Positions 1 through 6,000 of a stretch of DNA of 8,645 bases are shown piece after piece. A program made the position numbers. Source of the DNA: a virus (Duplodnaviria; Heunggongvirae; Uroviricota; Caudoviricetes); the IMG/VR virus record IMGVR_UViG_2548876856_000015; one strand, 5' to 3'. Every line of letters begins with the position of its first letter. Within the stretch, counting starts at the first letter, position 1.

Positions 1-3000
1 CTAGCAGTCAAACTCAACAACTAATTCTTCGGTAATATCGCTTAGGGAAACAATGCCTTTATATCCAGTCTCAACATACGGGACAACCCTCTCGCCCCAT
101 GCTTTTTCTTCTTTCCAAGAAGTCCATGGAATCAGTTTCTCGAACTTGCTTTCGTGAAGAAACAGTATTGAAATCTTATCACCTTGTTCGCGTTTAAGGA
201 TCTGAGTTGGAAAACATTTATAAGCATGCTCTTTCCAGAATCTAGTCCCATAGCATCTATAGTCGAAAAAAGACACGCAATTGCGCTGCCTAAAAAAACC
301 ATTAGATGTATTTCCAAATCTTGAAAATTGCAATAATTCCGAATTTGGAACCAAAGCTCCAGATTGTTTTATAAGGAGCATATTAGCTGCAGTAGTAACA
401 TGAAACACTTTTCCTGAAAGTGCAGATAAAATATCGTCGTTATACGTGATTTTGAGTTGATTGATTATCATATTTTTTATCAAGTAACTATTGGCCTGTT
501 GCTGTTCATTAGCATAGCATGATGACTGCTATTGGCTGTGAGTTCAAGGTGGCGTTGGGACTCTTAAATACTCACAACGCTACTTTGCTCCATCCTTTGC
601 CTCGGTCATCATGGTAACGATCGGTTTGCTGCTGGGTTTTATGGCCCAGTAACTTTCTGGTATCAACCCCTTGTTCCTTGTAAAGACGTTCAGATAAAGA
701 TCTTTGTTCATGAAAAGTTGCAGGAGTTCCAGTACCCCAATCAATTTCTGCCAGATCACGTGCCTTGCTAAAGTTCATCGTTAGTGTATTAGCTTTTACC
801 TGTGCGCCACGTTCAGCCTGTGATGTAGTACGGAAAAAATGCACTAAGTATGGGCTGACTGCGTAGTCACGGCAGCGAGCTACTACATCACGTAAACACC
901 AGTTGATAGCATTCAAACGTAAAGAAAGAGGGATAGCGATTTTGCTCCCGGTCTTTTCCTGAATGACGTGAAGATGATCCTCCCAAATATCACTAAATTT
1001 CATTTTGGATATATCTCCTAAACGCTGCCCAGTGACCAAAGCTAGGAGCATGGCATTTCCCATATAACGATGAGCGGCGTCTGCGATATCGAATATTTTT
1101 TTCCATTCTTCTAGGCTGAGGCGTTGACGGCTAATTTTCCTTCTGGGTTGCTTCGTTGCAAGAGCAGGGTTATACCCTGGTGGAACTTCGCCGTAATGCT
1201 GTGCTTCCTTAAACACATCGATCAATACAGACCTTACGACCTGGGCCATTCTAGGCTGTCCAGCAGAGATATACTCATCAAGTAATTGTGCTATATCTCT
1301 GACATCAACGGCTGATATCAACTTCAGTCCTGCTCGTTCCCTGAGCAAGGATACTGGTTTGGCTTTCTGTTTATAGGTGTTGAGCTTTATATCGCCACTT
1401 TTCAGTCTGTCTTCCTGGATTGCTTGATAGCGATCTAACCAGGTTGACGTTGTGATTGCTTTTCCTTTGCTGGTTGCGATCCTGTCACTGATAGCTAGAA
1501 TCTGCCGGGTTCTTTGCTCAGCTAGGCGTGTATTGGCCTCAGTGGCAATAGCAATGGCTTCAGCTTCGTTTGTGCCCAAAGAATGAAACTTCCCGGTCAC
1601 TGGATGCTTATATCGCCAATAAACTTTATTTACTTTTCTGCTATAGAGCGGATACAAGTTCGGGACTGAAACATTATTCTTACGTGGTCTGGCTGCCATT
1701 ACTTAAAATCCTTTGTAGAATAATAGAATCACTTTTCTTAATGACAGGAGTAACTAATTCCCCAACTAACTCTGCGTCCTCACGTACTCGCCATAGTCGA
1801 CCTTGTTTCATTGCCGGTGGACAAAATAAATTCTGCTTAGCATAATGACGCAATGTGGACACACTTGGAGGGTTACTCCTAAATTTTTCCGCAGCCCATT
1901 CCTCAAGTGTCAGCATTTGAAGCATTTTGATAACCTCATTTCTTTTGCTACAAAACTATTTCACAAGTTAATTTCGCAGTTAGGATTGCTTATGCATCTT
2001 ATGCAGCTCTTTAAAACGTTCCATAAACATCCCGTAGGCATGGCCCGGTGCCAGTGGAATCACGTTGAACATCTCTGTTGCCGGGATACCTTCCAGTACA
2101 AGCCAGAAAGAGCCATCATCAAGCCCGAGATCGCGGCGTTCGGTTGCCAGCATGATGAGATCGGCATATTTCACGGGTGTACTCATAACTGGGGGTAACC
2201 CGTATTTCTCACGGATTACGGCGTCTATTTTTTCTTCCATCCGTTTATAGTCAGGAAGAAGGCGTTTCAGTGGTGCGGGAATGTCCTGGCAATACGCTTC
2301 TGTTGCATCATGCATTAACGCTTCAAAAGCAAATTCCTGCGGCACCAGCTGGCTGCAAAGAACCGCATGTTGGGCGACGCTGTAGAAGTGCGAAAGATGA
2401 CCGGCAAAGCGGCAGATATTTGAAAGGGAAACCGCGATATCGTTAATAACGATGTCGTCTTTATTTATCCTGTCATAATAAAAATGCTTCCCAGAAAAAG
2501 TTTTAATAAATGACATTTTGTTCTCCACGTATATGCGCTGCACCGCGCTGAATTCGGGTAAAAGGAAGCCCTCACCGTCCGGCGATTATTGAGTCGAGTC
2601 AATTACATTTCCATGAATGCCCCCGTAGGGGCGGTTAGTTTCTCCACAAAACAGTGAAGAACACCTGCGGTGGCAGCCGCCTGGATGGATTGGGTTATGA
2701 GCCCGTCGTCCGGTGATGCTCTTCTCTGTTTTGTAAAAAGGACGGTACCAGCCGGAAGCAAGGGTACAAACTGGTACCGTCAAGACTACACACAGCATAA
2801 AGTTGTGGTGCCGGGTGCCTCCCGGTGCCTGGCGAAGGTTGCACACCAGACGGGTGGGTATCCACAGAAGGTCGACTGTCAGCCTCAACCTTAACCCGCG
2901 TGCGCTGAGCCGCATTCACCACAACGCTAAGGATTCTCTCTGGTTGAAAATACTTAGCTGTTATGTGCCTGTCTTTTCACCACTTCAGGCTCGGTGGTAT

Positions 3001-6000
3001 CTTGGTGTTTTCATATAGCCAAGAAGGAAATAGTTATGACCAAAGAAGAAAAAATTCTTTATTTATTCCAACTATCGGTTAAGACTCACACTGCATATCA
3101 GACTGCTGCCATGACATCAGATAAAAATTACAGTACGTCAGAAAACCCGATAGACGACATAAGCAAGCTTTACGATAAGTTCGAAGCACTACTCGATAAA
3201 AAGTTTGCTGAGGCTGGGCTTGAGTGATTGTTGAATAATCGACAAAACCCAACTTAAATTTTCGTCAGTGGGCTCGATGCCATGTGCGGTGAGCTCACTT
3301 TTCAAAACTCCAAGCAATTCAGAGCTGATTTTCAATATATCTGCTTGATTTCTAACTATTCCCACTTTTTCCTCCCTTGGTCTACGCGCGGTCATGTTTT
3401 ACGCCCAAACGACTTCACAGTTATTGTTTAAAATCTGGACTTTCATTTCATACACCTGCTTTAACATGAGTGCCTGGTGGCACAACATGACTCAACGAAT
3501 CATCCTGGACTTCATATGCCCCAGGCGGCTACTTCGTGGGCGTCCTGCCTGTTCGTTTTTGACATTTACTGACTGCTTACGACACATGCACCGTGTTGCA
3601 ACCAGATTTTGTTGTAATCCGGTAGTTGGTCTGGAACAAAAGATAAAATTAAATTGCGAGATATGCAAGTAATATTTGCGAGGTATGCAAATTTATAGGT
3701 AATAAAAAGCCACCTTTCGGTGGCCGATGGATGGGATATTGAGGTTAATTATGTCTCTTAAGGGTTTGCGACTGACTGATTAAGACCTTTCCAAAGACCA
3801 TGAATCGGTGTTCGTTTTCGCTAGTAATTCCCCATTCACGGTAAATCTGGTTATCAGAAATCACCAGCAGTTTGTCAGGAATCATTTGAAGTCTTTTAAC
3901 GTATATTTTGTCATCAAAACCAAAGACATATATACCATCACCATCAAACTGATTGATGCTGACATCAACGAAGATGAGATCTCCTGGCTCAATGGTTGGA
4001 CACATACTGTCCCCACGAACGTTGATAACTTTGATGTGATTGGCTGGTCGTCCGCCGAACATTGATACAGCATTATCAGTTCTGTATTCGATGGCATGAA
4101 TCACATCAATGACATCACCGCCTTGGATAAGGCCATTTCCCGCACTGGCACTGATATCCAGCATTTCAATACGGAACACATCCTTCACCTGCGCAACATC
4201 CTCATTATTACTGTTTTTATATACAGTATTACTTTTGTGGGCAGAGGTAAAGAGATCAGCAATATCAACACCTAAGCTCTTGGCAATATTACTCAGTGTT
4301 TGTTCGGTAAATTGTTTTTGCTTACCCGTTTCTAAGCGCGAGATGTTCGCCGCATCTACTCCTATTGCTTCAGCGAGATCGGCGATTTTCATGTTCTTCG
4401 CTTGGCGAAGTTGTCTGACTCGGTTTCCTATGTTCATGCGTTTATTACATTTCTTTATTGCGTGATAAGCAAATCAACTTGCGCAAAATAATTGCGTGAA
4501 ATAACATGCATAACGCGCAATATTTGGAGGTTATATGCAATCACTATTACGAAATGTGCGTAAGGCGCATGGTTTCACTTTGCAGCATGTTGCTGCGGGT
4601 GTTCAAGTCAATCCAGCGACGTTGAGTCGTATTGAGAGGCTGGAGCAGATTCCATCTATCGAGCTTGCAGAACGTTTAGCCAATTTTTTTAAGGGTGAAG
4701 TCAGCGAAATGCAGATTCTTTATCCGGCACGTTTTCAATCTAGCCAAAACCAGAATGGGTTTAAACCACAGGAACAGGAGGTGAACCGTGGGTAAGCATC
4801 ACTGGAAAGTAGAAAAACAGCCTGAGTGGTACGTGAAAGCTGTCAGAAAAACTATCGCAGCGTTGCCGGGGGGTTACGCTGAAGCTGCTGACTGGCTGGA
4901 TGTAACAGAGAACGCATTATTTAACCGCCTTCGTGCCGATGGCGATCAGATTTTCCCGCTGGGATGGGCAATGATTTTGCAACGTGCTGGTGGAACTCAC
5001 TTCATTGCTGACGCTGTGGCGCAGTCTGCAAATGGCGTCTTTGTGTCTCTTCCTGATGTCGAGGATGTGGACAACGCCGATATCAACCAACGCCTGCTGG
5101 AGGTCATTGAACAGATCGGCAGTTATTCAAAACAGATTCGTTCAGCAATTGAAGACGGTGTAGTGGAACCGCATGAGAAGACAGCAATTAACGACGAGCT
5201 GTACCTCTCAATTTCGAAGCTGCAGGAGCATGCAGCACTGGTCTACAAAATTTTTTGCATTTCAGAAAGTAATGACGCCCGCGAGTGTGCAGCTCCGGGC
5301 GCCGTGGCGTGTCGTGACTGTGGAGAAACTAACGCATGAATAGTTTAACAACACACTACCGTCGCTCGCAACTGATTGCGCTTCCTGTACCGGGTGGAAA
5401 AGCGAAGGTGGAGTATTGCTATGCAGTAAATGTACCAGGTGGCAGGGTAATTGTAACCCACAGCTTTGCAGAGTGGGCTGTGGGTGATTTTAACCGGCAA
5501 AAGGAGACAGTCCTTTGCGACAAGTTAACCGCTGGTTCAAAGATCACTACGGAGTACCCGTCAGAGTCATTCGTTGGGAGCCGGAAACACAACGGGTTAT
5601 CTACCTCCGCGAAGGCTATGAGCATGAATGCTTCAGTCCGCTCGAAAAGTTTCGTCGTAAATTCAGGGAAATAGAGGTCGGTCATGAGCACTAAATTAAC
5701 CGGCTATGTATGGGATGGTTGCGCAGCGTCAGGCATGAAATTATCCAGCGTGGCAATTATGGCACGCCTGGCTGATTTCAGTAATGACGAAGGTGTGTGC
5801 TGGCCATCAATTGAAACCATTGCCCGCCAGATTGGCGCGGGGATGAGTACCGTCAGAACGGCTATCGCACGGCTGGAAGCAGAAGGCTGGTTAACGCGTA
5901 AGGCGCGTCGCCAGGGTAACCGCAATGCGTCGAATGTTTATCAGCTTAACGTTGCGAAGCTTCAGGCTGCGGCTTTTTCTCAACTGTCAGATTCTGACCC

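Follow-up and report, generated by a model that had tools for sequence, protein, structure and literature searches.

An 8,645-nucleotide (nt) stretch of DNA from a virus of the Caudoviricetes (IMG/VR record IMGVR_UViG_2548876856_000015), referred to here at its full length as the window, carries a GC-rich region (2545-3030) between the HD-domain gene yfdR and two small open reading frames (ORFs), which an earlier note had put forward as a candidate structured RNA. In this study, we show that the minus strand of this region specifies a compact 5' domain of five helices around one junction and a pseudoknot, followed by a linker and then by a terminator. Within the prophage STnc100/PasD small-RNA superfamily, this RNA is a divergent member that is fused to a DicF-like terminator, and the locus extends the STnc100/PasD family to a sub-family that is missed by the Rfam threshold. 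It is a prophage RNA widely misannotated as protein, in K-12 under the name 'ymfH'. Our preferred explanation, to which we give a probability of roughly 0.6, is that 2958-2735 on the minus strand encodes a non-coding RNA (ncRNA) of about 190-225 nt, an operon-derived small RNA (sRNA) of the Hfq-binding type combined with a terminator upstream of yfdR-xis-int; the mechanism is proposed by analogy.

The core domain and its family

Comparison of 56 non-redundant domains gave the following description of the core.

2801-2927, minus: core domain, five-helix junction with pseudoknot
2925-2917/2810-2802, minus: P1, closing helix of 9 bp
2916-2914, minus: junction AAU
2913-2909/2903-2898, minus: P2, with an A bulge at 2901 and loop UCAGC (family loop UNNGC)
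2897-2895 (GGG)/2854-2852 (CCC), minus: P2a, followed by a variable insert
2892-2886 (AAGGUUG)/2841-2835 (CAACCUU), minus: P3, pseudoknot of the strand after P2a with the P4 loop
2850-2844/2834-2828, minus: P4
2825-2821/2815-2811, minus: P5, loop AGGCA, abutting the 3' strand of P1

All sequence features that the earlier note had listed for 2545-3030 are present where it placed them. The region is indeed GC-rich (52.5%, and 63% in the core 2801-2927), as compared to 47.5% for the whole window and 40-46% for the neighbouring genes. Two of the listed pairings belong to the conserved fold: the tandem CCGGG/CCCGG hairpin (2811-2825) is the invariant helix P5, and the 7-bp helix 2835-2841/2886-2892 is P3, the covarying pseudoknot. 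The long-range CCCGTC/GACGGG pairing (2702-2707/2849-2854) has no place in this fold, since its bases are already engaged in P2a and P4.

Both strands of 2732-2960 fold well (z=-3.48 for minus, z=-2.96 for plus), so that thermodynamics alone cannot choose the strand. The covariance model R1, built from an alignment of 56 relatives with the window in the training set, assigns the minus strand of the window 95.3 bits, as against 5.3 bits for the plus strand, which bears out the earlier idea of a leftward RNA upstream of yfdR. The following loci, all outside the training set, were scored with the same model.

ST64B: 94.3 bits
phiES15: 90.1 bits
E. albertii: 83 bits
JL22: 80.2 bits
K-12 e14: 79.8 bits
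Phage P1: 78.5 bits
K-12 Qin: 76.8 bits
Pantoea, two loci: 72-74 bits

An alignment of the 56 domains with MAFFT was fine in the flanks and misaligned P2a, P3 and P4 (45-52% paired); it was replaced by a per-sequence helix search and a model-based alignment. In the latter, covering 84 relatives, 93.3% of the cells pair and double-sided, compensatory changes occur in 23 of the 29 pairs. None of 500 shuffled controls reached any of five measures, a statistic inflated by kinship among the sequences and obtained from an alignment fitted to the nested structure; with slid partners, pairing falls to 39-45%. P5 pairs in 100% of the cells, P2a in 95% and P4 in 91%. Better evidence for the fold comes from the diversity of pair types and from the cross-pairing control. 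P2 shows three CG-to-GC flips, its first pair being flipped in 26 of 82 sequences. For the pseudoknot P3, fixed alignment columns are unusable and a per-sequence search was applied: cognate strands form a mean duplex of 6.74 bp, as compared to 4.48 bp for non-cognate strands and 4.12±0.13 bp for shuffled loops, and 45 different duplex sequences are found across the family. P3 is not part of the Rfam STnc100 model and was found here in most members. Among 59 close relatives, variable sites make up 7.9% of the core, less than in any other segment of the locus (29-53% in the flanks), and the junction and loop nucleotides GGUGAAU, UNNGC and AGGCA are near-invariant. A covarying pseudoknot together with invariant junction nucleotides suggests a function beyond that of a simple sRNA made of seed plus terminator.

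The earlier note had matched the region to no RNA family. A scan against Rfam, however, yields STnc100 (RF02076) on the minus strand at full length (1-206; window 2732-2955, 44.7 bits, E=4.7e-8), slightly under the gathering threshold of 47 bits. Besides STnc100 and DicF, Rfam families give only weak matches at chance level at E<=10. The CCGGG/CCCGG hairpin coincides with the most conserved block of the STnc100 consensus, and the invariant 22-mer CACCGGGAGGCACCCGGCACCA, which is P5 plus the 3' strand of P1, occurs exactly at 2826-2805 (minus) and in more than 120 IMG/VR phage contigs. By BLAST, the flanks in these contigs are mostly unrelated to the window and form 20 clusters. Canonical STnc100 clusters score 54-131 bits with Rfam and are often found in tandem, adjoining tRNA genes; below the cut-off lie the window, L012, L060 and L080. 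A scan with the window variant of the first hairpin (GAATGCGGC.CAGCGCRCGCGG) again returned more than 120 contigs and defines the sub-family. Applied to one genome per species, the sub-family pattern gives mostly chance matches in GC-rich genomes, and the true matches in that scan come from Escherichia, Shigella and Pantoea only.

The likeness to STnc100 comprises P1 with GGUGAAU, the bulged P2, P2a, P4 with its loop pseudoknot and the invariant P5 with the 22-mer, as well as the location in a prophage and a terminator downstream of the domain. The window differs in that its P2 stem has three C-G pairs flipped to G-C, in having no strong promoter that abuts P1 and in its DicF-like 3' module. 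Moreover, it lies in the immunity/early-left region by xis-int, whereas canonical STnc100 is located in the late region (Q, tRNAs, stx, lysis genes). Eleven STnc100 copies have been reported as expressed in EDL933, one of them confirmed by Northern blot. Canonical copies form tandem arrays of three to five (L018, L026, L057, L010), some of them beside tRNA genes, which recall co-transcribed stable-RNA clusters. In L024 and L009, IsrI stands beside STnc100 copies.

PasD1 and PasD2 (EcOnc13) of enteropathogenic and enterohaemorrhagic E. coli are likewise prophage sRNAs with domain, seed-bearing linker and terminator, and PasD has been reported as Hfq-dependent, Northern-validated and the top CsrA chimera. 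PasD differs from the window RNA in lacking the canonical P5 and the 22-mer, in its location near Q and lysis genes and in its seed (UGUGAG). The PasD1 sequence, found in E2348/69 where it had been published, reaches 26.8 bits with R1 and 37.7 bits with the Rfam model; BLAST of the window RNA against PasD1 found chance words only (E of at least 0.66). As PasD scores below the window in both models and lacks the 22-mer, the window RNA is closer to STnc100 than PasD is.

Transfer RNA and tmRNA were considered and rejected, ARAGORN reporting no genes and the Rfam tRNA and tmRNA models no hit at E<=10. A tRNA-like RNase P substrate was rejected as well, there being no 3' CCA after P1 and no model match; the cloverleaf-like topology of the core is no more than an analogy. 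The idea of a GGA loop serving CsrA was likewise dropped.

Linker, terminator and flanking sequences

The core is embedded in further elements, which are listed here in the order of leftward transcription.

2964-2998, minus: 35-nt block that bounds the conserved module upstream and contains a CCAC/GUGG hairpin
2926-2958, minus: P0, 12-bp hairpin (GCUAAG.AUUUUC...GAGAAU.CUUAGC) directly 5' of the core, z=-4.8
2782-2800, minus: single-stranded linker UUUAUGCUGUGUGUAGUCUU, kept in ST64B, phiES15 and K-12 e14
2735-2781, minus: intrinsic terminator, stem 2781-2769/2753-2741 (13 bp), 15-nt loop, C-U5 (2740-2735)
2641-2739, minus: long hairpin (stem about 24 bp) immediately downstream of the terminator, which it accompanies in Stx2c phages, mEp460 and ST64B
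2517-2632, minus: yfdR leader, with 89% identity to the yfdR upstream sequence of K-12 CPS-53

The 11-bp stem 2741-2751/2771-2781 followed in minus sense by CTTTTTAC, as recorded in the earlier note, is the minus-strand terminator, the stem growing to 13 bp. Its hairpin has a folding energy of -23.8 kcal/mol (z=-4.25), and the U-run lies 63 nt past the domain, with -21 to -24 kcal/mol. Terminators are found within 110 nt (30-110 nt) after the domain in 50 of 84 members, often with a promoter abutting P1. The terminator is probably an Hfq-binding module as well. In K-12 e14 its stem is preserved through a compensatory A-U to G-C change; in ST64B and phiES15, unrelated GC hairpins with a U-run stand in its place. 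The linker is conserved in all three despite the differing terminator hairpins, and a conserved linker next to a variable hairpin is what a seed with a terminator behind it should look like. The linker sits where PasD carries its seed and is the candidate base-pairing region; in sequence it is similar to the 5' portion of DicF.

The 3' module is related to DicF of the Qin dicB operon, which has been described as an operon-internal Hfq sRNA ending at the hairpin homologous to the window terminator. With the Rfam DicF model (RF00039) the window scores 19.9 bits (E=0.21, 2740-2794, minus), under the cut-off of 48 bits, as compared to 76.7 bits for K-12 dicF itself. The two share a homologous terminator hairpin whose 5' arm GACGGUACCAGUUU resembles GGCGGUAUCAGUUU of DicF, and physical linkage to the same structured domain; like DicF, the window terminator would lie inside an early-left prophage operon. 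They differ in loop and seed sequences, and the order is inverted: DicF-domain-dicB in Qin, domain-DicF-like hairpin in the window. The Qin copy of the domain is unannotated and lies between dicF and dicB at 1,649,452-1,649,582 of K-12 (L231 2446-2590). A member of the same sub-family (GAAUGCGGCUCAGCGCACGCGG), it shows every helix, P5 in the compensatory form CCUGG/CCAGG; its P1 is extended to 18 bp, and dicB rather than a terminator follows after 26 nt. The RNase III-dependent 3' end of the 72-nt DicF has been reported 19 nt past the 53-nt end, which by coordinate arithmetic would place it in the 5' strand of the extended P1 of Qin.

An analogue in position and biogenesis is lambda PreS (LPR1), an Hfq-binding sRNA reported to be formed at terminator tL2a in the pL operon and made on induction; it bears no similarity in sequence or structure, and lambda has no domain. 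In mEp460 (L229 3673-3810) a degenerate copy of the domain, of 32 bits, is found at the same position upstream of a conserved DicF-like terminator, which suggests that the domain decays while terminator and long hairpin stay. The long hairpin is a candidate, and a weak one, for an RNase III site in read-through transcripts; it varies very little, and compensatory changes are seen in 2 of its 38 predicted pairs, one in the long stem and one in the inner helix.

The yfdR leader adjoins the RNA and is not part of it. It begins with the GC hairpin 2619-2632 and has a promoter-like site TGGAAA-17-AATAAT at 2613-2585. The hairpin exists as the earlier note had described it, yet as the start of this leader block at a module junction, left by the missing yfdP-yfdQ, and not as a part of the RNA. 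It lies in a 12-nt overlap of two blocks, one of which precedes yfdP in SfV and mEp460 while the other is the yfdR leader as in K-12 CPS-53; from the sequence, the window looks like a yfdP-yfdQ deletion at the repeated hairpin. CPS-53 was rejected as a carrier of the domain, having only the yfdR leader in common.

On the upstream side, the P0 leader hardly varies among close relatives, with 3 variable sites in 29 nt (2927-2955). A free-standing STnc100 gene is expected to have a sigma-70 promoter with its -10 ending 2-6 nt before P1. The best promoter match, AAGACA-17-TATTTT (8/12), is located 21 nt upstream of the domain and overlaps P0; its -35 is not kept in relatives, and the P0 hairpin spans the putative start. 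A LexA box upstream was rejected, its spacing being wrong as judged by eye. At 94% identity, the 35-nt block recurs in lambda (34394-34428, between ral and sieB) and in P22 (29650-29684, 6 nt from the annotated sieB promoter). Well over 100 records of lambdoid phages contain it, and it may serve as a module boundary or as a signal. Lambda and P22 share only this 35-mer with the window and were rejected as carriers, having no domain copy. Operator-like repeats TTGCGAGATATGCAA and TTGCGAGGTATGCAA occur at 3654-3690, just left of the cI terminator, and resemble TTGCGTGATAAGCAA between cI and cro (4458-4472). They probably represent OL/pL of the phage, from which leftward transcription across the RNA is likely to start. 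No minus-strand terminator was found between these repeats and the RNA, which makes transcription from an early-left promoter plausible.

The RNA under 'ymfH' and the explanations weighed

A match to the 486-bp region 2545-3030 is present in 2785 of 5426 complete E. coli genomes, and to the RNA segment alone in 2109 of them. The region is 97% identical to Shigella phage SfII and is also found in SfV, SfIV and others; the RNA segment alone likewise occurs in SfII, SfIV and SfV. In the matching E. coli genomes the region is annotated as 'hypothetical protein', and a genome 100% identical over the 486 bp carries it as a 'frameshifted' pseudogene; over the RNA segment, the matching genomes show a hypothetical or 'frameshifted' protein, or nothing. 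That the region codes for a protein (YmfH, SfII_35), intact or decaying, is nevertheless highly improbable. It is consistent with such a gene that a 109-aa ORF is open in 49 of 59 close relatives and that RefSeq and GenBank annotate hypothetical proteins. This ORF is interrupted in the other 10, and its variable sites at codon positions 1/2/3 (22/18/26) show no bias. From the shared ATG, ORF length varies between 7 and 112 aa in homologues, and the frame changes between near-identical copies. The ATG itself lies in the J1/2 junction without a spaced Shine-Dalgarno, and the canonical STnc100 family has no ATG at this position. As noted earlier, the only ORFs over the region overlap one another in four frames, and none of them matches Pfam or NCBIfam. 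Conservation tracks base pairs, not codons. Of the readings in the earlier note, the structured RNA is supported and the decayed gene, kept there as an alternative, is not.

In K-12 (MG1655), e14 has the gene order of the window, intE-xisE-ymfH-ymfI-ymfJ-ymfK. K-12 derivatives carry the RNA segment at 93.5% identity under 'ymfH', and the e14 copy aligns with few differences from the 35-mer to the long hairpin. As annotated, YmfH joins parts of two window frames that overlap, and this chimeric make-up accounts for the 'frameshifted' flag in the source genome. The ORF of ymfH (b1142; L271 3070-3381) overlies the same RNA. K-12 studies list 'ymfH-xisE-intE' as one unit of SOS-type induction, and ymfH is reported to be co-induced with e14 genes within the YmfT (cro-like) iModulon. 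A preprint lists over-expression of ymfH as a trigger of the retron-Sen2 RcaT toxin; because the cloned ymfH ORF carries nearly the whole RNA in sense, this triggering could be an RNA effect. With ymfH read as RNA, a phantom protein disappears and K-12, the model organism, gains an RNA gene open to experiment.

According to the explanation we prefer, leftward transcription would make the RNA, probably from an early-left (pL-type) operon starting at the repeats near 3654-3690 and derepressed on SOS induction, as reported for K-12 'ymfH-xisE-intE'. Most transcripts would stop at the terminator and yield a stable RNA whose U-tail can bind Hfq; this RNA would base-pair with target mRNAs through the linker, as PasD and DicF do. 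The same terminator would limit read-through into yfdR-xis-int, and read-through transcripts may be cut in the long hairpin downstream. Located just upstream of yfdR-xis-int, the RNA may influence excision and cell-cycle control during prophage induction. Both the free-standing prophage ncRNA and the leftward early-operon leader or attenuator proposed in the earlier note come close to this explanation.

Several points weigh against it. At the gathering threshold of STnc100 the window gives no hit and thus stays below the Rfam cut-off. A promoter scan found no minus-strand promoter of at least 9/12 near the RNA, which therefore has no convincing promoter of its own. The U-tract of the terminator has 5 U only, and P5 of the e14 copy shows two lesions, a 1-nt deletion and a G-to-A change. 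We infer RNA ends, abundance and Hfq binding at the window locus. Finally, in several sub-family members an ORF with a ribosome-binding site (dicB, P1 tciA, another ORF) follows 26-31 nt downstream with no terminator in between, which argues that the domain can act in cis.

This last observation also speaks for a purely cis-acting element, in which the fold, the terminator and the long hairpin work on their own transcript alone, as an attenuator, insulator or processing site that sets the expression of yfdR-xis-int and elsewhere of dicB, kil or tciA. We consider it possible, though unlikely. It would agree with the 18-bp P1 of Qin, inside which the RNase III-dependent 72-nt DicF end maps by inference, with the K-12 databases, which give ymfH-xisE-intE as one operon, and with the tight control that cell-cycle inhibitor or recombination genes downstream need. 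However, canonical relatives stand alone as genes that have a promoter and a terminator of their own, PasD acts in trans, and the linker is kept independently of the terminator hairpin, as expected of a seed; cis and trans roles are, moreover, not mutually exclusive. A sensing or antitermination RNA, in which junction and pseudoknot bind a ligand, RNA polymerase or a protein and so control the terminator in the manner of a riboswitch or of put, appears quite improbable. The fold is as complex as a riboswitch aptamer, its junction and loops are near-invariant, and the domain precedes a terminator in an early operon. Yet no alternative (antiterminator) pairing is conserved, ST64B and phiES15 have unrelated terminators, distance and sequence between domain and terminator vary widely, many members are free-standing with no gene downstream, and there is no similarity to any Rfam riboswitch family. 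The choice among three GGTACC copies once suggested for such a switch is not supported: the middle copy (2763) is replaced by ATACC or GTACA in close relatives and is missing from K-12 e14; it varies without compensation while the terminator stem persists through its compensatory change. HK022 put, the analogy drawn in the earlier note, is a cis-acting structured RNA of lambdoid early operons, located just downstream of the promoter, and consists of two stem-loops, unlike the five-helix junction of the window; no sign of similarity came up, no test aimed at it having been made.

Least credible is a plus-strand RNA serving the small ORF at 3036, whether as a regulator or as the leader that the earlier note had suggested. 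The plus strand does fold well, but the family model gives it only the 5.3 bits mentioned, the U-run of the terminator exists on the minus strand only, and ST64B, phiES15 and Qin keep the minus-sense orientation relative to leftward genes. Of a different kind is the doubtful idea that the five-helix pseudoknotted domain is itself the functional module, more than the 5' end of a base-pairing sRNA, and could be a protein-binding, RNase-guiding or defence-interacting RNA. Temperate phages would deploy it either as free-standing RNAs (STnc100, PasD) or as leaders and operon-internal elements, the latter before dicB, kil, tciA and yfdR-xis-int. If so, 'ymfH' and the dicF-dicB spacer would be unrecognised copies, and retron-Sen2 triggering would be an effect of RNA.

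Beyond the choice among these explanations, the locus ties the STnc100/PasD family physically to DicF. The sub-family includes a copy in the classical dicB operon, which appears to coincide with the long-known RNase III processing site.

Gene order of the window and minor observations

The window is the immunity/integration end of a lambdoid prophage of the e14/SfII/SfV type, in which the structured RNA lies between the cI region and yfdR-xis-int.

572-1699, minus: int
1680-1925, minus: xis
1980-2516, minus: yfdR, HD-domain 5'-deoxynucleotidase
3036-3227, plus: ORF of 64 aa
3189-3395, minus: ORF of 68 aa
3745-4437, minus: cI-type repressor with its own terminator
Beyond cI: cro, ymfL, an O-like gene and further rightward genes

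The ORFs of 64 aa and 68 aa are convergent and overlap each other, and no family match was found for either. The N-terminus of the 68-aa ORF, MTARRPREEK, is arginine-rich and reminiscent of N-type antiterminators. In ST64B (L226 1409-1597), C4 antisense RNA (79.7 bits) adjoins IsrK (64.3 bits) beneath the annotated sb41 ORF on the rightward (cro/replication) side, both being encoded on the other strand from the sub-family domain of this phage. Within the O-like replication gene of the window, at about 5990-6060, iteron-like direct repeats (TCAAAATCTGAC and variants) are found, which are probably the phage origin.

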